From assembly GCA_965277805.1 (NCBI GenBank), contig OZ255842.1, positions 5,408,001 to 5,472,000 of the forward strand: 64,000 bases of DNA, given 5' to 3'. Under the pieces are notes generated by a model. It was not told the DNA's origin. It saw nothing but the letters and a program-made list of their open reading frames with translations, and ran no database searches. How positions within the stretch are numbered: position 1 is the stretch's first letter; every line of letters starts with the position of its first letter. The translations under genes and the position numbers were made by a program. Source of the stretch: Candidatus Lustribacter sp. (GTDB taxonomy: Bacteria > Vulcanimicrobiota > Vulcanimicrobiia > Vulcanimicrobiales > Vulcanimicrobiaceae). Shown here piece after piece: positions 29,728 to 44,319 of this stretch.

Positions 29728-30465
29728 CTACATCGAGCCGGGGGCGGGTTTCTTCGGCGTTGGCGTGACGTTGGGGTTCATGTCGGCCCAGGCGCCGTTG
29801 GGGTTCGGCAGTACCCACGGAAAGAGATCCCACATCGCCGGATGCAAGAAGATGAATTTCACTTGCGACGGATCCGTCAATCCGGGCAGGCCGGTTTTGA
29901 CGAGCGCGACTTTGTTGGCCGGAATGTCGGGGACGTTTTCGCTCAGCGTGCCGCCCGCGTCGGTGAATTTTTGCACCGGCATCGCACCGAGATGCAGCGA
30001 ACCGTCGGCGGCGGTGAAGCCCCAGTGCATGTGCGCGGCGCGATGAACCCAGCGCGCGGGATCGATCGCGTAGCCGAACAGCGACGTCGGTGCGTTCGGC
30101 GATTTGTCTTGCAGAATCGTGTAGTCGACGCCGAGCAGCCGGCCGTTGGCGTCGTACCAGAGCTGGTTGGGAACGTCGAGATCGATCGAGTTCCACACTT
30201 TCAAGTTTACGTAGCTGATCGCGCCGGTATTATCTTCGCCCGTGTACTGGAAGTAGCCGGCTTTCTGCGCCGATGCGACCGTCGGGTAGAGTTTCGGAAT
30301 GTCGACCTGGATCTTCGCGATGAACGGCTGTTCCGCGGGCGTCGGCATCGGCGGCATCTTCGTAGGTGTGGGCGCCGCCATCGGCATCGGCATCGTTTGT
30401 GCGAATGTACGTGACGGCGCAAGCGTACACAAAGCGATGAACGAAAGAACGGTTTGTCGATTCAT
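29728..30465 (-). CDS. Secreted hypothetical protein
   Basis: Signal peptide, Met/Pro-rich linker, AQKAGY..P.QLWYD..WVHRAAHMH..PNPNG.W..NP. Confidence 0.75.
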   Translation of the reverse strand: MNRQTVLSFIALCTLAPSRTFAQTMPMPMAAPTPTKMPPMPTPAEQPFIAKIQVDIPKLYPTVASAQKAGYFQYTGEDNTGAISYVNLKVWNSIDLDVPNQLWYDANGRLLGVDYTILQDKSPNAPTSLFGYAIDPARWVHRAAHMHWGFTAADGSLHLGAMPVQKFTDAGGTLSENVPDIPANKVALVKTGLPGLTDPSQVKFIFLHPAMWDLFPWVLPNPNGAWADMNPNVTPTPKKPAPGSM

Positions 30466-30552
30466 GACTGCCTCCAGCAAGTGACCTCTGCGGCGGCCTT
30501 CGCGCGCTACGCGCGTAACGCCCGCAAGAAACTCTTAGCGAATGCTCAGGCT

Positions 30553-32095: not shown

Positions 32096-33778
32096 ATGCT
32101 GCTCGAGGCGGATGTGCTCGTGATCGGCGCCGGGGCCGCCGGTCTCATGGCAGCGCGCGCTGCCGCCGCGGCCGGCGCGTCGGTCGTGATCGCGGACAAG
32201 AGCATCATCGGCCGGGGCGGCGCCACCATCATGGCCCAGATGACCACCGCCGTGGCCCTCGGAGCTGCCGAGCCGGATTCGGTCGAGCTGCACGCGCTCG
32301 ACACGTGGGAGGGCAGCCGTGATCTCGGCGACCACGCGATTATCGACGTCATCTGCACGCGCGCGCCCGATGTGATTCGTGAAGTCGAAGGCTACGGTGC
32401 GAATTGGGCGCGCACGGCCGACGGCAGCTACAGCCAAGTGTTCGCACCCGGACACTCGCGCAAACGCTGCGTGTACGTCGACGTGCTGCGCACCGGCGAT
32501 GCGGTTTCGCAAGCGTTGCGCAGCGTCGTGCGCCGCGACGGCAACGTCGTGCGCCTCTCCAACGTGATGCTCACGAAGCTTGCGAAAGACGCCGATCGCG
32601 TTACCGGCGCGCTCGGCTTCGCGATCGAGCAACTCGAACCGGTGGGCATCGCGGCAAAGACCACGATCGTCGCGACCGGCGGGCTCACGTTCCTCTACGC
32701 GCGCAACAGCGCATCGGCGAATATGACCGGCGACGGTTTTCTGCTCGCCGCCGAAGCGGGTGCGACGCTGCGCGACATGGAGATGGTGCAGTTCTTTCCG
32801 ATCGCGCACCTGTATCCGCCGCTGGTGCAACTCGATCCGATCATGTGGGATCCGTTTCGCTACAAGCTCGGCGGCCGTTTGCTCAACGGCAACGGCGAAG
32901 AATTTCTCGGCGAGAGCGGTGATGCGTCGGGCGCGTACACGACGCCGCGCGATACCGCCACGTACAAGATCTTTCGCGAAGTCGAAGCGGGCCGCGGCTC
33001 GCCGCACGGCGGCGCGTATCTCGATTTCCGGATGATCGGCGCGGACGCACTCAAGGCCGGTTTCGGACCCGTCATCGACATCCTCGCGCGTCAGGGCATC
33101 GATCTTACGCGCGACATGGTCGAGGTGTCGCCGATGGCGCACTTCATGCTCGGGGGCATCGCGGTGGACGCGTCGATGCAGACCGGCGTCGAAGGACTGC
33201 TCGCCTGCGGTGAAGCGATCGCCGGCATGCACGGCGCCAATCGCCTCTCGGGCAATGCGATCACCGAGGCGCTCGTCACGGGCCGCATCGCGGGCGAAAT
33301 GGCCGCCGCACGCCAAGCAATCGCGCGCACCTCGATCGAAGCGGCGCTGGCGGAAGAGTGGGCGCAGCTGAAGGCGCTGTGGCATCCGCGCGCGGTTTCG
33401 CGCGACGATGGGCCGGTCGATGCGTTGAAGGCGCGCTTGCAGCAGACGATGTGGGACAACGCGGGACCGCTGCGTACCGGTCCGCAGCTCGAACGCGCGC
33501 TGGCCGACATCCGCGCGCTCGAAGCGGAGAGCGCCGGGCTCGCGCTGGCGCCGGTCGAGGCGTTCGCCTTGAATCTGCAAGAACGCGTGGAATTGCGGAT
33601 CATGCTGGCGGTGGCGGAGTCTATCGTGCTGCCGGCGCTCGAGCGGCGCGAATCGCGCGGCGCGCACGTGCGGCTCGACTTTCCCGAACAAGATGCCGCC
33701 ACGGTCGCGCACATCCTCGCGCGCAGCGACGAGCGCTGGACGATGACCTCGCGCGAAACCGCGGCGGCTTCGGCATGA
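32096..33778 (+). CDS. SdhA/FrdA/NadB-superfamily flavoprotein with atypical active site
   Basis: DVLVIGAGAAG, ATGG, TGDG, DMEMVQFFP, HFMLGG, ACGE..GMHGANRLSGNA, RRESRGAH.R.DFP. Confidence 0.9.
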   Translation: MLLEADVLVIGAGAAGLMAARAAAAAGASVVIADKSIIGRGGATIMAQMTTAVALGAAEPDSVELHALDTWEGSRDLGDHAIIDVICTRAPDVIREVEGYGANWARTADGSYSQVFAPGHSRKRCVYVDVLRTGDAVSQALRSVVRRDGNVVRLSNVMLTKLAKDADRVTGALGFAIEQLEPVGIAAKTTIVATGGLTFLYARNSASANMTGDGFLLAAEAGATLRDMEMVQFFPIAHLYPPLVQLDPIMWDPFRYKLGGRLLNGNGEEFLGESGDASGAYTTPRDTATYKIFREVEAGRGSPHGGAYLDFRMIGADALKAGFGPVIDILARQGIDLTRDMVEVSPMAHFMLGGIAVDASMQTGVEGLLACGEAIAGMHGANRLSGNAITEALVTGRIAGEMAAARQAIARTSIEAALAEEWAQLKALWHPRAVSRDDGPVDALKARLQQTMWDNAGPLRTGPQLERALADIRALEAESAGLALAPVEAFALNLQERVELRIMLAVAESIVLPALERRESRGAHVRLDFPEQDAATVAHILARSDERWTMTSRETAAASA

Positions 33779-34089
33779 GCGGAACGACGACGACGCTCGC
33801 GATCGCGCGCGCCGTTCCGGGCGGCGAGCCGTGCGTCGAAGAGTTCGTCGTGCCGTACGAAGACGGGCTCACGCTGCTCGACGCGATCATCTGGATCCGC
33901 CGTCATCACGATCCGTCGCTGGCGGTGCGTTTCTCGTGCAAGGCCAATGCCTGTAAGGAATGTTCCGCCCTCATCGACGGCAAGCCAGGCTTTTTGTGCG
34001 CTCAGCGCGCAGTGCCCGATGCAACAGCGCGAATCGGACCGCTGCCCAAACCGCGCTTGATCCGCGACCTCGTGACCGAACTGTACTGA
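33775..34089 (+). CDS. Stand-alone 2Fe-2S protein (SdhB/FrdB N-terminal domain only, 104 aa)
   Basis: TLLDA..I....DPSL..RFSCKANACKEC...IDG....LC..IGPL...IRDLV, then stop; ATGA overlap with the flavoprotein. Confidence 0.85.
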   Translation: MSGTTTTLAIARAVPGGEPCVEEFVVPYEDGLTLLDAIIWIRRHHDPSLAVRFSCKANACKECSALIDGKPGFLCAQRAVPDATARIGPLPKPRLIRDLVTELY

Positions 34090-34105
34090 TGGAGACGAGC
34101 GAGTA

Positions 34106-35557
34106 ATGCCGAAAAACCTGCGCACGTTCATGCGCGATGCCGTCGAGCGCTTTCCCGGTTCGATCAAAGTGATCGACGTGCCGGTCGAGCGGCGCTTCGG
34201 TATCACCGCGTATGCGGCGAAGCTCGCGCAGACCGGCGAGTACAAAGGTCTGCTCTTCAACAACGTGATCGGATCGCGGTTTCCGGTTGTGACCAACCTG
34301 ATGTCGAGCTACGACCGCATGGCGATGGCGATGAACTGCGGGATCGAAGAGCTGCCGCAAGTCTACGGCACCCGCGTGAAGAAACCGATCGCGCCGGTGA
34401 TCGTCGCGCGCGACGCCGCGCCGGTGAAAGACGTCGTGATGCGCGCCGACATCGACCTTGCGACCTTGCCGATCCCGGTGCACAACGCGCTCGACGGCGG
34501 GCCGTACCTCACCGCCGCCGCAACCGTCATGCGCGATCCCGAAACGGGCGCGCAGAACGTCGGCATCTACCGCCATCACGTGTTCAACAAGACCGAGATG
34601 GGCGTGTGGTTCTTCGGCAGCCATCACGGCAGCGACATCGTCGGGCGCTACGAGCGGCGGGGTGAGCGCACGCCGTTCGCGATCGCGATCGGCCACCATC
34701 CGGCGTTTTTGATGGGTGCGGCCGCGCGTTTGCCCGGCATCGGCGGCGAATACGATGCGGCCGGCGCGCTGCTCGGCGAGCCGGTCGAATTGGTCGAAGC
34801 CGAAACCTCCGATCTGATGGTGCCCGCGCAAGCGGAATTCATCATCGAAGGCTACATCGCGCCCGGGCAGCTCCGGCGCGAAGGGCCGTTCGGCGAGTGG
34901 CCCGGCCACTACCTGAACGAAGAAGACGTGCCGATCATGACCGTCACCGCGATCACGCACCGGCGCGATGCGATCTTTCAGGACATCATCGGCGCGGGCC
35001 GCGAGCATTTGCTCATGGGCGGCATTCCGCGTGCCGGCAGCATCTATCGCAGCGTGAAGGACGTCGTTCCCGACGTCGTCGCGGTCAACGTGCCGCCGCA
35101 TAGCCGGATGCACTGCTACGTATCGATCAAACGCCGGCACAACGTCGATGCGAAGCGCGCGGCGTTTGCGGCGCTGAATACCGAGCCCGAGAATTTGCGC
35201 GCCGTAATCGTCGTCGATGACGACATCAACGTCTACGACGACGGTGACGTGCTGTGGGCGGTGGGGACGCGTTTCGACGCCACGCGCGATCTCACGATCG
35301 TGCAGGGTTGGAGCGGGCCCGGCGGATTATTGCCGACCAACTGGGAGTACTTCGCTGACGGAACCAAGACGGCGCGGGCTTCGAGTGCGATCATCATCGA
35401 CGCTACGAAGCCGCCGCCACCGGTACCGTATCCCCCGCGCACGCAAGTTCCGGACGACGAAGTGAATCGTGTCGATCTCGGAACGATGAGCGATCTCACC
35501 GGGGCAAACCCATACCTGCGCGCCGCTGAGGAAGCGGCGCGCGTAGGTTTGGTTTAG
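34106..35557 (+). CDS. UbiD family prFMN-dependent (de)carboxylase
   Basis: DLATLPIP.H...DGGPY.T, NVGIYR, VPA.AE.IIEG, EGPFGEW.G.Y, VIVVDDDI, IIDATK. Confidence 0.93.
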   Translation: MPKNLRTFMRDAVERFPGSIKVIDVPVERRFGITAYAAKLAQTGEYKGLLFNNVIGSRFPVVTNLMSSYDRMAMAMNCGIEELPQVYGTRVKKPIAPVIVARDAAPVKDVVMRADIDLATLPIPVHNALDGGPYLTAAATVMRDPETGAQNVGIYRHHVFNKTEMGVWFFGSHHGSDIVGRYERRGERTPFAIAIGHHPAFLMGAAARLPGIGGEYDAAGALLGEPVELVEAETSDLMVPAQAEFIIEGYIAPGQLRREGPFGEWPGHYLNEEDVPIMTVTAITHRRDAIFQDIIGAGREHLLMGGIPRAGSIYRSVKDVVPDVVAVNVPPHSRMHCYVSIKRRHNVDAKRAAFAALNTEPENLRAVIVVDDDINVYDDGDVLWAVGTRFDATRDLTIVQGWSGPGGLLPTNWEYFADGTKTARASSAIIIDATKPPPPVPYPPRTQVPDDEVNRVDLGTMSDLTGANPYLRAAEEAARVGLV

Positions 35558-35889
35558 GAGGCCTTTTTCTCGGCGGCAGCCGCGTCGGCGGCAGCCTTCT
35601 TGCCTTGCTCGATCAGGGCTTTGACCTTCTGGCCGCCCTTTTGGCCGATCTCTTCGTAAAAAGCCGGGCCGTAACGGTCGCGAGTGGCCTCGCCGCCTTT
35701 TTTGCCGCCTTTTTTACCGATGGCCTCGTAGAAAGCGTGGCCGTGAGCCTTTTTCGTAGCCTGACCACCCTTGCGGCCGATCATCTCGTAAAATTCGGGG
35801 CCATACTTTTTCTTGACGGTCTCGCCGCCTTTTTGACCGGCTTCGCGGACGCTCATGCCGGGTTTACGCTCTGGAGTGGGGGTGGACAT
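35554..35889 (-). CDS. General stress protein with KGG repeats (GsiB/YciG-like)
   Basis: MSVREAGQKGG..FYEMIGRKGG..FYEAIGKKGG..FYEEIGQKGG. Confidence 0.9.
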   Translation of the reverse strand: MSTPTPERKPGMSVREAGQKGGETVKKKYGPEFYEMIGRKGGQATKKAHGHAFYEAIGKKGGKKGGEATRDRYGPAFYEEIGQKGGQKVKALIEQGKKAAADAAAAEKKAS

Positions 35890-36130: not shown

Positions 36131-37234
36131 TCAATGACGGGCGAGCAGCGTCCAAATCCGCCGGCGGCCGGCGAACACGAGGGCTCCGGCGGCCAGCATG
36201 GCCCCCACGAGCGTGAGAAGCATGATGGGGGAGAACCCGCTGGCGAGCGCCGCGCCGCAGGTCCGCACCACCCCGCCGAAGAGCCGCAGGGCAAAGCGAG
36301 CCAGCGGATTGGCCGGCAGCGTGGCGATCGAGCGCGCCTCAGCCGCGACTTCGGCTGCGGTCCAATCGTTGCCGGCGAACGTATTCTCAAGGAAGCCGTC
36401 GCGAGCGATCAGGACCGCCTCGGTATGAAGGATGAGCCCGGGCCGCGGCCGGTCCACGTAGAGGCCCGACCGCTCGGCAAAGGCGGCGATCGAGGCCGGC
36501 GCACCCGTCGCCAAGGTCCAGCGGTCACCGTCGGCGCCCGCCGCCCGGCCGTAGGCGCGCAGGACGGCCGGCGTATCGTAGGCCGGGTCGAGGGTGATCT
36601 CGAGCAGCCGGACCGGGGTGTCGCGCAGCAGGGTCGCCATGCGCCCGAACTTCGCGGTCACGAGCGGGCACATCGACGGATCCGGACAGCGGGTGTAGAT
36701 GAACGATAGCACCGTCACGCCGTGCTGCAGATCCACGCCGGCGCCGTTCATGTCGACCAGCGGCGGTGCGGCGAGGGCATCGGTGCTGCGCGCGTCGGCA
36801 TTGAAGGCCGAGCCCGCAGTGCGGCCGCTGATCCGGAACGGCACGTCCACCTCGTTTTGATCGCCGGCGGTGTTACGCGCAATCACGTGCAGCGTGTAGG
36901 GCCGCACCATGAGCGCGGGCACGTCGATCACGTGGAAATGAAAGTGAAATCGGCCCGGCTGTGAGCGAGGGGCCGAAAAATCGAAGAGGTTGGTGCCGAT
37001 TTCGAGGCTCGCGGTATTGGTGGTGGTAACGACGTCGCCGTCCCAGTCCGTGCCGGCTCGCACGTCGAGACTCGAGAAACGCAGTGCCTGGATTGCGGGC
37101 CGCGCGGCCACGCTCGAGGGATGTGGAGCGGGCCAATTCTTGGGCGTGCCGGCCGCGACGAAGAGCGAGTTCGGCTTCGGCGGCAGGGCTTGAACGCATC
37201 CGGCGAGGACGACACTCGCAATGAGCGCGGTCAT
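36131..37234 (-). CDS. SCO/SenC copper-chaperone domain fused to an N-terminal lipoprotein beta-domain and a C-terminal TM anchor
   Basis: LAGC lipobox; SFIYTRCPDPSMCP, ITLDP.YDTP.VL..Y, W..ATG, ILHT; start uncertain. Confidence 0.8.
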   Translation of the reverse strand: MTALIASVVLAGCVQALPPKPNSLFVAAGTPKNWPAPHPSSVAARPAIQALRFSSLDVRAGTDWDGDVVTTTNTASLEIGTNLFDFSAPRSQPGRFHFHFHVIDVPALMVRPYTLHVIARNTAGDQNEVDVPFRISGRTAGSAFNADARSTDALAAPPLVDMNGAGVDLQHGVTVLSFIYTRCPDPSMCPLVTAKFGRMATLLRDTPVRLLEITLDPAYDTPAVLRAYGRAAGADGDRWTLATGAPASIAAFAERSGLYVDRPRPGLILHTEAVLIARDGFLENTFAGNDWTAAEVAAEARSIATLPANPLARFALRLFGGVVRTCGAALASGFSPIMLLTLVGAMLAAGALVFAGRRRIWTLLARH

Positions 37235-38366
37235 CAGCCGCCCGGAAGCACCGAGGACGGTTTCCCAGAATCGGGTCGGACCGGCACCGCCCAATGCGAC
37301 GGTCGACTTACTTGTCGGTGTCGTGGGCTTGTGGCTCGCAGCGGGATTTTTGCTGGACAGTTGGGCCCATCTCCACGTCCCCGTCGAAACGTTCTTCACC
37401 CCCTACCATGCAACGTTTTATAGTGCGATGGTCGCGGGCTCGATCATTGTGCTGGTCTTCGCGCGGCGGAATTTAGCCCTCGGATTCACCGGAATGAACG
37501 CGTTGCCTGCCGCGTACCAAACCGCCCTATGGGGCATTCCGATCTTTTTCCTGGGCGGCGTCGGCGATTTGATTTGGCACACGTTCTTCGGCGTCGAGGA
37601 TCGCGTCGAGGCGGTGACGAGTCCGACTCATCTGATCATCGGTCTCGGCGTGCTGCTGGTGGTCGGGGCGCCGATCCGTTCCGCGTTGGCACAGCGAACG
37701 ATGCTGGTCACGTTGCGTTCGCAGTTGCCGCTGCTGTTTGCGCTCGCGACGTGGCTCGAATTCATCCATCTGGGGACGGCTTACGCATTCGATCCCGGAG
37801 CGGCGCAGCTCTACGCGCCGCCCGACGGCGCCGCGTACAGTCCCGATTATTTCACCAACACGACTTTCGTCTTGTTCAAAACCGGTTCCGGAATCGCGAT
37901 CGTCATTTTGCAATCGCTGATCTTGATGGGCGTGTGCGTTTGGGCAGTGGCGCGTTTCCGTTTGCGTCCGGGTGCGCTGACGATCCTGTTCGTGCTGGCC
38001 AACGGCATGATCGCCGCCGCGCTGACCAACGACACAATGATCCTCGCGACGTACCTCGTGATGAGCGTCGCGGCCGGGGCTGCCGGCGATCTCATTATCG
38101 CGCGGCTGCATCCCTCGCGGTCGCGGCCCATCGCGTTCGGCTTGTTCGGAGCAGTTGTGCCCGGCGTCTATTATGGAACGTACTTTCTCTTCACGGCGCT
38201 GACCGGCGGCGTCTGGTGGAGTTGGACCCTCACGCTCGGTGCAATCGTCTGGGCGATGCTCTGCGGGCTGGCACTCACGCTACTTGCTGGCGGGCGTGAG
38301 GGGACCCCGGCGCTGCCCGTGCCCGAAGGTAACGCAGCCTTTACAACTCCTCCCGTCTCCTTGTAG
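37221..38366 (+). CDS. Polytopic membrane protein with two D-x3-H-xn-PxH motifs (PmoC/AmoC-like metal sites)
   Basis: DSWAHLHVPVETFFTPYH and DLIWHTFFGVEDRVEAVTSPTH; roughly 9-10 hydrophobic helices. Confidence 0.75.
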   Translation: MSAVISRPEAPRTVSQNRVGPAPPNATVDLLVGVVGLWLAAGFLLDSWAHLHVPVETFFTPYHATFYSAMVAGSIIVLVFARRNLALGFTGMNALPAAYQTALWGIPIFFLGGVGDLIWHTFFGVEDRVEAVTSPTHLIIGLGVLLVVGAPIRSALAQRTMLVTLRSQLPLLFALATWLEFIHLGTAYAFDPGAAQLYAPPDGAAYSPDYFTNTTFVLFKTGSGIAIVILQSLILMGVCVWAVARFRLRPGALTILFVLANGMIAAALTNDTMILATYLVMSVAAGAAGDLIIARLHPSRSRPIAFGLFGAVVPGVYYGTYFLFTALTGGVWWSWTLTLGAIVWAMLCGLALTLLAGGREGTPALPVPEGNAAFTTPPVSL

Positions 38367-38401
38367 GCCCCCATCGCCCGCACTCGAACGTGGGAGGGCG
38401 T

Positions 38402-38962
38402 ATGGCCTGGCGGGTGCTGGTCGCGGACGACGACCCTGAGATTTGCACGCTCATCAAAACGATCTTACGCAACGCGTCGTTCGAAGTCTCGGTTTGCCCT
38501 GACGCCGAAAGCGCGCTCGTTCATCTGCAGCGCGACAAGGCCTACGATATTCTGATCAGCGACTTCATGCTGCCGGGCATCTCGGGCATCGAGTTGATCA
38601 CGATGGTTCGCGCGAACCCGCAGACCGCGCGTTTGCCGATTTTGATGATCAGCGGTCACAGCAACTACGCCATGGACGCGCGCGCGAAGAGTGCCGGCGC
38701 CGATCATTTTCTCAACAAGCCGTTCACGCTCACGCAGTTGCGTTCGACCGTGACCGCGCTCGCATCGAAGTACCGTCCGTTGACGGAAGCGGAAGAAGCG
38801 AAGATCGCGGCCGGCAAAGCCCCCGGCGCCGCCCCGCCCGCTGCGCCGCAAGCGCAAGCGCCGACACGGGTCGTCGGTACTCCCGGCCGGCCCGACACGA
38901 TCAAGGTGACGTCGACTGCGCCGCTCACCGATGCGAAGAACAGCGGATCCGACTCGCACTGA
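38402..38962 (+). CDS. Single-domain response regulator with Pro/Ala-rich tail
   Basis: VLVADDD, ISDFMLPG.SG, ISG, FLNKPF. Confidence 0.9.
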   Translation: MAWRVLVADDDPEICTLIKTILRNASFEVSVCPDAESALVHLQRDKAYDILISDFMLPGISGIELITMVRANPQTARLPILMISGHSNYAMDARAKSAGADHFLNKPFTLTQLRSTVTALASKYRPLTEAEEAKIAAGKAPGAAPPAAPQAQAPTRVVGTPGRPDTIKVTSTAPLTDAKNSGSDSH

Positions 38963-38984
38963 TCGCTAGACGGCGCGGTATCGC

Positions 38985-39554
38985 ATGACCGCCGCCGCAC
39001 TCTTTAAAGTCGTGCTGGTGGCGATGTCGCTCGGGCTCGACGTTTTCGCCGTGTCGATCGGCGTCGGCATGCGCGGTTTGCCGCGCGGCGTGAAGTTCCG
39101 CATCGGCGCGGCGTTTGCGGCGGCCGAAGTTTCGATGACCGTCATCGGCGCCGGCATCGGGCAGGTCGCGGGCGCGTTGCTCGGCGACATCGCGGGCTAT
39201 ATCGGCTTTGCCGCCCTGATCGGCGTCGGCATCTACATGGTGATCGAATCGCTGCGCGAGAGCGAGGCGGGTGGATTCGATCTCTCACGCGGCTGGGGCT
39301 TGCTCTTGGGGGCGGTCTCGATCAGCCTCGACTCGCTCGGCATCGGCTTCTCGATCCTTTTCATCGGGGTCCCGCTCGCCGTTTCGCTCGTTTGTATCGC
39401 CGTCGTGGCGGTGACCTCCACGACCCTGGGCCTCACCCTCGGCCGGGCGCTCGGCGCGCGCGCGGAAGCGGCGGCTGCGACGTGGGGCGGCGTCATCCTC
39501 ATCGCGACCGGCGTCGCGTTTGCGGCGCTGAAGTTGTTCTCCGCCAAACTGTAG
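38985..39554 (+). CDS. mntP: Manganese efflux pump MntP family
   Basis: SLGLDVFAVSIG and SISLDSLGIG duplicated motifs; about 6 TM. Confidence 0.8.
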   Translation: MTAAALFKVVLVAMSLGLDVFAVSIGVGMRGLPRGVKFRIGAAFAAAEVSMTVIGAGIGQVAGALLGDIAGYIGFAALIGVGIYMVIESLRESEAGGFDLSRGWGLLLGAVSISLDSLGIGFSILFIGVPLAVSLVCIAVVAVTSTTLGLTLGRALGARAEAAAATWGGVILIATGVAFAALKLFSAKL

Positions 39555-42682: not shown

Positions 42683-42842
42683 AGCTACCGTGCAACGCAT
42701 CGCCATCGTCTGTCTCGTCCTCGCCGGCGTCGACATCGTCATGGGACAGAAGACGCTCGCGATGATCTTCGCCGGCGTCGCGATCGCGATCAGCCTCGGG
42801 GCGGGCCTGCTCGCCGGCCGCAAGAGCGGCAAAGGCCGCTGA
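42675..42842 (+). CDS. Small two-helix membrane protein (55 aa, below the ORF-track cutoff)
   Basis: GAGGT RBS; MPKATVQRIAIVCLVLAGVDIVMGQKTLAMIFAGVAIAISLGAGLLAGRKSGKGR; start overlaps the MFS stop. Confidence 0.6.
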   Translation: MPKATVQRIAIVCLVLAGVDIVMGQKTLAMIFAGVAIAISLGAGLLAGRKSGKGR

Positions 42843-43209
42843 ACGTGATCGACTCGTGGCTGATGGCCAGGCCGTGGCGGGACTCGAGTTGCGCGCGCGT
42901 CGCGTCGTCGAGCGCGTAGTCGACATCTTCGACGGCGCCGCAGGCGGTGCAGCGGAAGTGGGCGTGGTCGCTGGTGGCCGGCTCGTACATCGCCGAACCT
43001 TCACCCGGGATGTCGAGTTTGAGGACATGCCCGAGCTCCTGGAGCCGGGCCAGACCGCGATGAACCGTCGTAAACCCGATGCGCGGCTGCCGCTCGCGGG
43101 CGCGCATAAAAACGTCCTGCGCCGTCGCATGACGACCCGACCCGAATTCGTTGACGACGTCGAGGATCACGCGATAGTTGGCCGGGAGTTTGGGGGTTGA
43201 CGGGTTCAT
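42790..43209 (-). CDS. Fur family regulator, PerR-like
   Basis: HATAQDV, TVHRGL, HAHFRCTACGAVED, GLCRSC; Asp at the position equivalent to PerR D104. Confidence 0.88.
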   Translation of the reverse strand: MNPSTPKLPANYRVILDVVNEFGSGRHATAQDVFMRARERQPRIGFTTVHRGLARLQELGHVLKLDIPGEGSAMYEPATSDHAHFRCTACGAVEDVDYALDDATRAQLESRHGLAISHESITFSGLCRSCGRRAGPPRG

Positions 43210-43240
43210 CCGATCGGAGTAACCTCATACAGCGACGTGG

Positions 43241-43255
43241 AAGTGAATTTCACTT
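43241..43255. promoter_or_regulatory. 7-1-7 inverted repeat AAGTGAA-T-TTCACTT, putative Fur/PerR box
   Basis: Perfect palindrome in the gap between the Fur-family gene and the peroxiredoxin. Confidence 0.6.
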
Positions 43256-43291
43256 TCAGTCTACACGAAAAGTTACTGGAGGACAAGCACT

Positions 43292-43846
43292 GTGCTAGCG
43301 AAGGTCGGACAGCCCGCACCCGCGTTCAAACTCAAGAGCACCAAGGGCGCGACGAGCGCCAAGAACCTTGGCGCCGAGATCAGCCTGTCGGATTACAAGG
43401 GCAAATGGCTGATTTTCTTCTTCTACCCGCTCGATTTCACGTTCGTCTGCCCGACGGAGATCCGCGCCCTCTCGGATCGCCTCGACGAACTCAAGGCCCT
43501 CGACACCGAAGTTCTCGGTTGCTCGACGGACTCGGTCCACAGCCACTGGGCTTGGCTGAACACCCCGGTTGCCAAGAACGGCATCGAGGGCGTGAAGTAC
43601 CCGCTCGTGTCGGACTTCACAAAGGAAGTCTCCCGCGCATACGGCGTGCTCGATGAATCATCGGGCGTCTCGGGCCGCGGCCTCTTCATCATCGACCCCG
43701 AAGGCGTGCTCAAGTACGCCGTCGTCACCGCGGATAATGTCGGCCGCGGCGTCGACGAAACGGTCCGCGTGCTCCAGGCTCTCCAAACCGGCGGTCTCTG
43801 CCCGGCCGAGTGGGAACCCGGCAAGGCTCTGCTCACGGTCGGTTAG
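43292..43846 (+). CDS. 2-Cys peroxiredoxin (AhpC/YkuU-like)
   Basis: FFYPLDFTFVCPTE, RGLFIIDP, VGR.VDE, GLCPAEW; GGAGG RBS. Confidence 0.95.
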   Translation: MLAKVGQPAPAFKLKSTKGATSAKNLGAEISLSDYKGKWLIFFFYPLDFTFVCPTEIRALSDRLDELKALDTEVLGCSTDSVHSHWAWLNTPVAKNGIEGVKYPLVSDFTKEVSRAYGVLDESSGVSGRGLFIIDPEGVLKYAVVTADNVGRGVDETVRVLQALQTGGLCPAEWEPGKALLTVG

Positions 43847-43854
43847 GTTCGCAC

Positions 43855-44319
43855 ATGCCACTTCGTTTGAAAACGCCGATGCCGTCGCTGGACGGCATCG
43901 CCGACTGGGAGAACGGCGGCAAGCCCTCGGATGAGGCGCTTGCCGGCCACCCTGTACTGGTCCACTTTTGGTCGGTGAGCTGCTATATCTGCCACAACGT
44001 GGCCGATGTGGTCGCGGGCTGGCGCGATAAATACGAGCCTCGCGGGCTCAAGGTCATCGCGATCCACCAGCCGCGCGGACCCGAGGAACTAGACGTCGCC
44101 AAGGTGACCGAGGATGCCCGTGGCGAGATGGGGATCACCCAGCCGCTGGGGATCGACAACACGCACGCGGTCGTGAAGGCGTTCGAAAACGAGTTCGTGC
44201 CGGCTTACTACCTCTTTGATGCCAATCACGAGCTCGTGCACCGCCAGGCGGGCGACCGCGGCTTCGAGCGGCTCGAGACCAAGATCGAAGAGGTCCTCTC
44301 GGGCGTTCCAGCTACCTAA
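43855..44319 (+). CDS. Thiol-disulfide oxidoreductase (YkuV/TlpA-like redoxin)
   Basis: L...MP.L.G..W.NG, HFWSVSCYIC, IHQPR, FENEFVPAYYLFD. Confidence 0.88.
   Translation: MPLRLKTPMPSLDGIADWENGGKPSDEALAGHPVLVHFWSVSCYICHNVADVVAGWRDKYEPRGLKVIAIHQPRGPEELDVAKVTEDARGEMGITQPLGIDNTHAVVKAFENEFVPAYYLFDANHELVHRQAGDRGFERLETKIEEVLSGVPAT

Follow-up and report, generated by a model that had tools for sequence, protein, structure and literature searches.

The described proteins that come closest to the locus presented here are the C subunits of copper membrane monooxygenases, PmoC and AmoC. In PmoC, Asp156, His160, and His173 are given as the ligands of the CuC site and Asn227, His231, and His245 as those of the CuD site (PMC12576850), and the active site of pMMO has been placed in this CuC/CuD pocket in an account that also describes pMMO and AMO as difficult to handle outside their native membranes (PMC11725843). 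The same pattern recurs in the 21 metagenomic PmoC/AmoC sequences of our comparison set, all of which are positive for PF04896 and 250–278 aa long: a first motif, DG(T/A/S)WHQ...RDT.FTP.H, is followed 71 residues later by a second, NEW(G/A)H...E(E/D).F.(A/V)P.H, so that the ligand string and spacing that the original prediction had given for PmoC are real. The membrane protein described below may bear on the origin of these monooxygenases and on the chemistry of their copper pocket. A second point of reference is the SCO1/SenC family of copper chaperones and thiol-disulfide oxidoreductases, in which the copper ligands are a CxxxC motif plus a distal His.

The window, by which we mean the whole stretch of 64,000 nucleotides, comes from a genome represented by one contig of 5.53 Mb (95% complete). 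At 37221..38366 on the plus strand it carries an ATG-started open reading frame, present as a single copy in this genome, for a membrane protein of 381 aa that is predicted to contain ten helices. The AlphaFold2 model (pLDDT 78.5, 10 long helices) divides into an N-terminal four-helix bundle (aa 22–163; 37284..37709, plus strand), which holds all conserved polar residues, and a C-terminal six-helix domain (aa 164–360; 37710..38300, plus strand), which has a conserved D290 in helix 8 and an outer loop, 190–222, that is poorly modelled; the roughly 240 additional hydrophobic residues noticed at the outset correspond to the six further helices modelled at residues 165–356. The first conserved motif, D46-x3-H50-x12-H63 (DSWAHLHVPVETFFTPYH; 37356..37409, plus strand), extends from where helix 1 ends to where helix 2 begins, and the second, D116-x3-H120-x5-E126-x10-H137 (37566..37631, plus strand; D116, H120, and H137 lie in DLIWHTFFGVEDRVEAVTSPTH), likewise from the close of helix 3 into the first part of helix 4. 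A hand count on the translation reproduced both motifs and the distance of 70 residues between D46 and D116, and the model agrees that each follows a transmembrane helix (26–52 and 102–123), with H63 and H137 in the first turns of helices 61–86 and 135–157. Lysine and arginine are distributed 15 to 2 between the inner and the outer loops predicted from the translation and the modelled helices, and 6 of the 15 relatives scanned have a PD40 or PDZ domain inserted behind the N-terminal bundle, which fits an outer (periplasmic) loop at that point. The seven conserved residues are predicted to sit on a single side of the bundle, where its helices end at the outer face of the membrane, a clustering judged from helix positions rather than from inter-residue distances.

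The conservation of these residues, which had been set as a check on the prediction, is close to complete. Among 113 diverse relatives with 26–40% identity, D46, H63, and H137 are retained in all 113 and H50, D116, H120, and E126 in 112 each, position 290 in helix 8 is acidic throughout (Asp in 106, Glu in 7), and all seven motif columns are invariant in an alignment of 81 sequences (A2). The Asp-to-Asp spacing is 59–72 in the 218 proteins in which both motif patterns were matched at separate places, with 70 residues in 112 of them and 71 in 61; as judged from these alignments, the Asp/His pattern is not a product of chance. Variants that have lost the ligands do occur, namely P0058, P0089, and a Chlorohelix histidine kinase of 1373 aa that carries the N-terminal bundle and PD40 at its front, as is compatible with a working site that some copies have given up.

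The family to which the protein belongs is large, unnamed, and undescribed, as had been anticipated. It comprises 2238 related clusters at E ≤ 1e-3 (clusters at 50% identity) and extends over Chloroflexota, Actinomycetota, Eremiobacterota, Methylomirabilota/Rokubacteria, Deinococcota, and even Peribacteria, with cultured hosts in Rhodococcus, Deinococcus, Paenibacillus, and Arthrobacter. The protein matched no Pfam family at E ≤ 0.1 and nothing among NCBIfam models or PDB sequences; NCBIfam searches with 81 family members returned two stray single matches and nothing else, the family profile (A1) found no PDB chain at E ≤ 10 with PmoC entries among those searched, and Foldseek gave no match for the whole model at E ≤ 1e-3. 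An Atlas search with the protein retrieved 'hypothetical protein' clusters only, and a search for fused family forms of 705–2010 aa found none, which is weak evidence.

Divergently to this gene, at 36131..37234 on the minus strand, lies a reading frame of 367 aa (from the ATG at 37234) that combines a lipoprotein domain, here called X, with an SCO1/SenC domain and a C-terminal membrane anchor. Domain X (36803..37234, minus strand) consists of a signal peptide with a lipobox, read from the sequence as LAGC, a Pro-rich linker, and a domain of about 90 aa that belongs to no known family, matches nothing in Pfam or PDB, and contains no conserved His, Cys, or Met in its alignment (A6). The thioredoxin-like SCO1/SenC domain (36455..36733, minus strand) scores 44.5 bits against PF02630 (cut-off 22.8; E 1.9e-11), which upholds the earlier identification of the neighbour as an SCO fusion, and retains the conserved His (ILHTE); in place of CxxxC it has a C-x5-C motif (CPDPSMCP), which suggests that the domain may be a thiol oxidoreductase. 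All 43 of the longer X-containing clusters, which are close metagenomic homologs, show the same collinear fusion and carry PF02630, and C-x5-C-P is kept in 42 of them, so the fusion, to go by its homologs, is maintained in evolution; their identities of 66–93% to each other point to one inherited event. A full-length match occurs in 1 of 151 species genomes, and one paralog does have CxxxC (L037, in G128, a genome flagged as unpublished).

Gene neighbourhoods were sampled at 80 diverse loci (collected by way of an eight-sequence alignment, A3) and at about 60 loci within the phylum. Domain X adjoins a homolog of the membrane protein in 56 of 56 phylum loci, comprising 29 of 29 ortholog loci and 27 further ones (7 ortholog, 20 paralog), and a search of the 80 diverse loci with an X profile gave no match. 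Throughout the phylum it is X, and not SCO, that accompanies the protein, and the commonest operon partner is a PMT_2 glycosyltransferase. The loading of the protein by the SCO fusion, put forward in the original prediction, stays an inference. The proposed link to copper genes fared unevenly. Several copper proteins do stand beside family members: around two tandem paralogs in one genome (G024) there are two SCO-X fusions, two more SCO genes, a CopC-CopD fusion, and DUF1775/YcnI; a multicopper oxidase adjoins X or a paralog in 4 of 20 paralog loci and lies directly downstream of a family member at L070; a CopCD-like gene lies two genes away at L058; two Rhodococcus plasmids have a multicopper oxidase and a two-component system upstream of a family member, with ctaD nearby; and in Deinococcus aetherius a heavy-metal P-type ATPase is found at 2.6 kb. 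Against this, copper proteins make up 1 of the 122 immediate neighbours in other phyla, and 829 kb of flanks outside the phylum hold one multicopper oxidase, one CopCD-like gene, and no more, a count that by a rough estimate is about what chance would give. Beyond the X-SCO fusion the copper links are scattered, and most neighbours in other phyla have nothing to do with copper; the most widespread neighbour cluster reaches at most 7 of the 80 diverse loci, and these clusters are generic families. The genes next to the protein in the window, a response regulator (receiver) gene that follows it, MntP two genes downstream, and KGG, were considered as parts of the system and set aside, as tblastn found none of them in the 1.5-kb flanks of the 29 ortholog loci.

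Our preferred reading, to which we give a probability of roughly 45%, is that the protein forms an outward-facing His/Asp metal centre, probably linked to copper, of an undescribed family. It is an inner-membrane protein of ten helices with both termini in the cytoplasm, and its N-terminal bundle is an internal duplication of one helical hairpin, each copy presenting a D-x3-H where the outgoing helix reaches the outer face and a (T/S)P-x-H where the returning one begins. Four His, two Asp, and one Glu would in this way come together where the bundle meets the periplasm, most likely as ligands of one or two metal ions, in an arrangement working like the CuC/CuD pocket of PmoC, whether related to it or not. 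Within the phylum the protein would work with the divergently encoded lipoprotein domain X, presumably in contact with it, and in the lineage of the window the fusion of X to a membrane-anchored SCO1/SenC protein would hold a copper or thiol-redox domain near the metal site. Since an SCO domain would be held there, copper would be the likeliest metal, passed to or from the site, which may play a catalytic or a relay role; on this basis the protein may be a new copper-handling protein. His, Asp, and Glu in a ligand set with neither Met nor Cys are no less suited to Zn, Mn, and Fe than to Cu(II), and the Nramp gene that is operonic with the adjoining tandem paralogs of G024, together with MntP in the window, makes manganese or iron possible.

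The persistence of the PMT_2 glycosyltransferase gene bears on another reading, in which the protein is a membrane-embedded binuclear Zn or Mn metallohydrolase at the outer leaflet, acting on an envelope substrate (for example a peptide, or a glycan or phosphate linked to lipid), with this downstream GT-C enzyme as its partner and the nearby copper proteins incidental. The PMT_2 gene immediately follows that of the membrane protein, in the same orientation, in 33 of 36 ortholog loci and in 16 of 20 paralog loci (at least 10 genera in all), and the resulting three-gene unit is preserved in both paralog classes; PMT_2 glycosyltransferases are not known to be linked to copper. Four His, two Asp, and one Glu are a usual ligand set of two-metal hydrolases, which the seven residues of the protein fit, the PD40 propeller and PDZ inserts of its relatives are typical of peptide- or polymer-handling enzymes, and the existence of ligand-less copies, one of them serving a histidine kinase as its input module, is also in keeping with such an enzyme. 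PMT_2 is, however, missing from the window and from the three nearest species (G137, G039, and G018) as well as from the 122 immediate neighbours in other phyla, neither Pfam nor Foldseek with the whole model found a hydrolase fold or motif in the protein, and the X-SCO fusion and the multicopper oxidase and CopCD neighbours would be left unexplained; we consider a hydrolase unlikely.

Doubtful, too, is a role other than that of an enzyme, in which the protein would be a metal-sensing or metal-conducting module, a transporter or else a sensor scaffold, with the His/Asp cluster as its entry or sensing site. Such a role would account for the N-terminal bundle and PD40 at the front of the 1373-aa histidine kinase and for the weak HisKA_3 tail of the family member P0176, and it is in line with the frequency of regulators among the 122 neighbours (5 TetR, 3 ECF sigma, 4 histidine kinases, and 3 LuxR/MalT), the receiver gene that follows the protein in the window, the acidic residue at position 290, the operonic Nramp gene of G024, and a weak resemblance of the C-terminal domain to S-components of ECF transporters (for example 5edl_A and 3rlb_A, by Foldseek with the whole model). 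The kinase-fused copy has nevertheless lost the ligands, so that sensing there bypasses the site, the family matches no transporter family in Pfam or NCBIfam, and the receiver gene stands beside none of the 29 ortholog loci.

The resemblance to PmoC itself was what the original prediction had stressed, and the motif order, the spacing, and the topology stood up better than the homology. D46, H50, and H63 have exactly the D-x3-H-x12-H spacing of the CuC triad at the same position in the hairpin, and D116, H120, and H137 start 70 residues after D46, as against about 71 for CuD, with Asp in place of the CuD Asn and a spacing of x16 instead of x13 in the second motif. In the comparison of the family with PmoC by hhalign, the only match (Prob 9.95%, score 29.7, pairwise P/E 0.0032) places D46, H50, and H63 in register on the invariant D, H, and H of PmoC, and an extended (greedy) alignment of low confidence continues it collinearly, with H120 and H137 opposite the second PmoC His pair; the first hairpins compared by themselves give P 0.005. 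Controls come close behind, with a maximum of 28.4 (median 16.0) over 40 local shuffles, 22.9 and 16.7 for reversed profiles, and 23.5 for the unrelated PmoA, and alignment A1 against the PmoC alignment A4 reaches a Prob of 0.2%. The structural check that had been proposed against pMMO came out similarly divided: with the N-terminal domain as query, three C subunits rank 6, 18, and 19 among 350,542 chains in Foldseek (9pxf_G, E 0.79 and TM 0.46; 9leg_C, TM 0.52 and rmsd 5.1; 7s4l_C, TM 0.52) at E 0.79–1.2 and 17–19% identity, other bundles equal or exceed them in TM (5xsj_L 0.57, 6wti_C 0.56), VIA-align returned 50 four-helix bundles, all generic, and PmoC chains are absent from the matches listed for the whole model.

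At the level of profile models nothing joins the two families. The Pfam AmoC model (PF04896) does not match the protein, and the A4 PmoC profile found nothing at E ≤ 1 in the source genome, the gene in question included. As to the claim that pmoA and pmoB are lacking, neither was seen in the annotated part of the window (about 29.7–45.5 kb), and in the genome AmoC, AMO (PF02461), and Monooxygenase_B (PF04744) gave no match in searches run without a positive control. The C-terminal domain was considered as a replacement for PmoA and rejected, as hhalign against 20 PmoA sequences gave a Prob of 1.8% and placed the match in the N-terminus instead. Kinship with PmoC is at most suggestive, and it appears quite improbable that the N-terminal bundle truly shares ancient descent with the catalytic core of PmoC/AmoC and defines a stand-alone copper oxidase family across soil phyla. 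That the protein is, as such a homolog, a single-chain copper monooxygenase acting on a membrane-soluble substrate without PmoA or PmoB would suit the position of the pMMO active site, but its neighbours offer neither a reductant nor a substrate pathway, and we hold it to be very improbable.

If the bundle were truly related to PmoC, it would show the ancestor of the copper membrane monooxygenases and would mean that some new reaction, dependent on copper and oxygen, takes place at the membrane surface. A single chain that rebuilds a PmoC-like Asp/His pattern within one four-helix bundle would be far more tractable than pMMO or AMO for spectroscopy and mutagenesis. Even if it is unrelated, the very large size of the family, its invariant polar site of seven residues, its dedicated lipoprotein partner, and its recurrent ties to SCO, multicopper oxidase, and GT-C glycosyltransferase proteins point to a side of the metal biology of the envelope that is unstudied, in soil phyla of which little is known.

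Set against known systems, the divergent partner resembles SCO1/SenC proteins in its C-terminal half, which lies above the PF02630 cut-off and keeps the conserved His, and departs from them in its C-x5-C motif, its N-terminal X domain, and its C-terminal membrane anchor. Neither the membrane protein nor X matches the Pfam families CopD or CopC, and X is without conserved metal ligands; in architecture, the pair of a polytopic membrane protein and a small extracytoplasmic beta-rich partner nevertheless resembles CopD with CopC, or YcnJ with YcnI, in which copper is handled by an inner-membrane protein and a beta-domain partner in the periplasm, and paralogs of the protein share an island with a CopC-CopD fusion and DUF1775/YcnI. 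From PmoC and AmoC the protein differs in its length and its unrelated six-helix C-terminal domain (381 aa as against about 250–278 aa), in its second motif relative to CuD, in an additional invariant Glu126, and in having no PmoA or PmoB partner that we could find. What it shares with them is a core in the form of a four-helix bundle, built from two tandem hairpins about 70 residues apart that are joined through a positively charged inner loop, each carrying a (D/N)-x3-H where one helix ends on the outer side and a (T/A/S)P-x-H where the next begins.

The window encodes a 381-aa protein with an ATG start at positions 37221-38366 of the forward strand (ORF listing), and counting residues on its translation bore out both motifs of the original prediction, D46-x3-H50-x12-H63 and D116-x3-H120-x16-H137. 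Its AlphaFold2 model, with 24 homologs as input (pLDDT 78.5, pTM 0.78), consists of ten long helices, with D46 and H50 at the end of helix 1 (residues 26-52), H63 at the start of helix 2 (61-86), D116 and H120 at the end of helix 3 (102-123), and H137 at the start of helix 4 (135-157); the N-terminal four-helix bundle (residues 22-163), modeled separately with 58 diverse sequences as input, is confident (pLDDT 89.7). The loops between the model helices hold 15 Lys and Arg residues on the predicted inside versus 2 on the predicted outside, and therefore both termini are predicted to be cytoplasmic and both motifs to lie at the outer face.

The ten-helix protein matches no Pfam family at E<=0.1, has no meaningful NCBIfam match and, profile search included, no PDB sequence match, and the named ones among its 184 word-indexed matches are all annotated "hypothetical protein". 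Source names among these matches indicate Eremiobacterota. Its family comprises 2238 clusters (50% identity, E<=1e-3), 584 of them at E<=1e-30, and by record titles occurs in Chloroflexota, Rokubacteria/Methylomirabilota, Armatimonadota, Dormibacterota, Nitrospirota, and Peribacteria, with plasmid-borne members in Deinococcus, Rhodococcus, Arthrobacter, Nonomuraea, and Paenibacillus; in the window's phylum it is present in 62 of 151 species genomes, often in at least two copies. Across a set of 113 full-length relatives (26-40% identity), all conserve D46, H63, and H137, 112 conserve each of H50, D116, H120, and E126, and an acidic residue occupies position 290 (Asp in 106, Glu in 7); conservation of H52, E56, E180, and H183 is limited to close kin. 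All 18 family proteins of at least 560 aa retain the motifs, and 15 relatives scanned for inserts after the N-terminal bundle included five with a PD40 beta-propeller and one with a PDZ domain.

The best-supported mechanism, to which we assign a probability of about 0.45, is an outward-facing putative metal centre of His4/Asp2/Glu1 composition in a duplicated four-helix bundle, which would act together with a divergently encoded lipoprotein domain, X, and in the window's lineage would be coupled to an SCO domain, copper being the likeliest, albeit unproven, metal. X lies divergent from and adjacent to the ten-helix homolog in 29/29 ortholog loci, lies there too in 7 more ortholog loci and 20 paralog loci, and is the conserved partner. 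In the window, X belongs to no known family, has no conserved His, Cys, or Met, and forms the first 144 residues of a fusion, X-SCO (36131-37234, reverse strand), whose likeliest start, the ATG at 37234, gives MTALIASVVLAGC with a lipobox; the remainder is an SCO1/SenC domain with C-x5-C, a conserved His, and a C-terminal anchor. A canonical CxxxC was seen in one SCO paralog only, from a genome flagged as unpublished (G128). With that start, X-SCO (reverse, from 37234) and the ten-helix gene (forward, from 37221) share 14 nt at their 5' ends, head to head, so that each promoter would have to sit within the other gene. Very short divergent spacers also occur in relatives, for example at locus L003. 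The full fusion was found only in the window's genome among the 151 species genomes; all 43 longer X-bearing protein clusters contain the SCO1-SenC family (PF02630) and are collinear with X-SCO at 66-93% identity, and the fusion is therefore a single event, retained in the window's lineage. In 7 of these 43 clusters, the longest contig is the same size as that of close homologs of the ten-helix protein, which suggests the same adjacency.

Evidence for copper comes from several neighborhoods, the richest being an island in genome G024 (L240; G024:C38:25000-43000) with four SCO1/SenC genes, one bearing a CusF-like domain and two fused to a C-terminal X, the reverse of the window's order, as well as a CopC-CopD-peptidase S26 fusion, DUF1775/YcnI, a secreted protein rich in His, and Nramp; two tandem ten-helix paralogs come next. 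The His-rich protein (L240 11322-12215, between YcnI and Nramp, no Pfam match) also adjoins a family member in two Peribacteria genomes (L090 7164-7601 and L091 1827-2384; 29-30% identity), and may be a further metal-binding partner. A multicopper oxidase adjoins X or the paralog in 4/20 paralog loci, all of a single genus; outside the phylum, one lies immediately downstream of a family member (L070) and a CopCD-like gene lies two genes from another (L058). On two related Rhodococcus plasmids, the surroundings of the family gene include ctaD, a multicopper oxidase, and a two-component system, and in Deinococcus aetherius a heavy-metal P-type ATPase lies 2.6 kb away. The broader context argues against copper: 121 of 122 immediate neighbors at 80 diverse loci are non-copper genes, the widest neighbor family spans at most 7 of those 80 loci, two Deinococcus plasmids have nothing relevant around the family gene, the one or two copper genes in 829 kb of flanks are, as a rough estimate, near chance expectation, and the window contains no other copper genes near the locus.

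A receiver-only response regulator whose tail is rich in Ala and Pro starts 24 nt after the ten-helix gene, and an MntP manganese exporter comes next (38390-39554); they are conserved beside 0/29 ortholog loci. Elsewhere in the window, an apparent oxidative-stress unit (42790-44319) comprises a Fur-family regulator and, divergent from it, an AhpC/Prx gene overlapped by one for a thioredoxin-like redoxin; three consecutive genes encode a fumarate-reductase-like flavoprotein, a small 2Fe-2S protein, and a UbiD-family decarboxylase, with a KGG-repeat stress protein next on the opposite strand (32096-35889); and no Pfam family matches a 250-aa protein whose N-terminus resembles a signal peptide (29728-30480, reverse). 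At the Anaerolineae-type loci L092, L098, and L100, a 328-aa protein without a Pfam match is encoded divergently upstream of the family member; L098 also has a separate PD40-repeat protein nearby, echoing the PD40 inserts of other members, and the neighbor cluster of that protein spans 5/80 loci.

A binuclear hydrolase tied to a glycosyltransferase would fit the PMT_2 (GT-C) gene that lies downstream on the same strand in 33/36 ortholog and 16/20 paralog loci of the window's phylum; PMT_2 is absent at the window locus and in the three nearest species (G137, G039, G018), and we consider this reading unlikely. The unit of X, ten-helix protein, and PMT_2 has been duplicated whole in the phylum (L003-L031, L243-L280), and both paralog classes retain all three. 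A sensor or transport module, which we also regard as improbable, would agree with regulators as the commonest neighbor theme (5 TetR, 3 ECF sigma, 4 histidine kinases, and 3 LuxR/MalT among the 122) and with a weak resemblance of the C-terminal domain to ECF S-components; the ligand residues are lost in a few copies (P0058, P0089, and the N-terminal module of a Chlorohelix histidine kinase). That 1373-aa kinase, on a plasmid of Candidatus Chlorohelix allophototropha (L238 4860-8981), opens with the ligand-less bundle, followed by a PD40 propeller, HisKA_3, and HATPase_c, and would represent the co-option of an enzyme-like fold for sensor input.

The metal centre proposed here was compared with PmoC/AmoC using 21 reference sequences, taken as ORFs upstream of matches to the pmoA primer A189f in metagenome contigs. 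All 21 match PF04896 (AmoC/PmoC), and all carry an invariant D-x3-H-x12-H and, 71 residues on, N-x3-H-x13-H, given in passages of PMC12576850 as the CuC and CuD ligands. With hhalign, the 81-sequence family profile produced one match to their alignment (Prob 9.95%, E 0.0032, score 29.7), which sets D46/H50/H63 exactly on the PmoC triad; greedy alignment extends it collinearly, with H120 and H137 opposite the second His pair. The controls approach this score: reversed profiles scored 22.9 and 16.7, 40 local column shuffles reached 28.4 (median 16.0), and the family against the unrelated PmoA profile scored 23.5. A shallower family profile gave Prob 0.2%, and hairpin-by-hairpin comparisons were all weak (P 0.005 to 0.5). 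Foldseek with the N-terminal bundle placed the AmoC/PmoC chains 9pxf_G, 9leg_C, and 7s4l_C at ranks 6, 18, and 19 of 350,542 (TM 0.46-0.52, 17-19% identity, E 0.79-1.2), level with unrelated bundles; VIA-align returned generic four-helix bundles only, and Foldseek with the whole model gave no match. The protein is not a PF04896 member, and searches of the genome, run without a positive control, found no canonical PmoA, PmoB, or PmoC. A true single-chain oxygenase of the copper membrane monooxygenase type is the least credible reading, and a very improbable one.

The original prediction of a copper membrane enzyme or copper-handling protein distantly related to these monooxygenases is partly supported. 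In our reading the construction of the site resembles that of the PmoC pocket; common descent with PmoC is not demonstrated and is possible, if doubtful. The two differ in the second motif, which in PmoC is N-x3-H-x13-H, 71 residues after the first, and in the ten-helix protein is D116-x3-H120-x16-H137.
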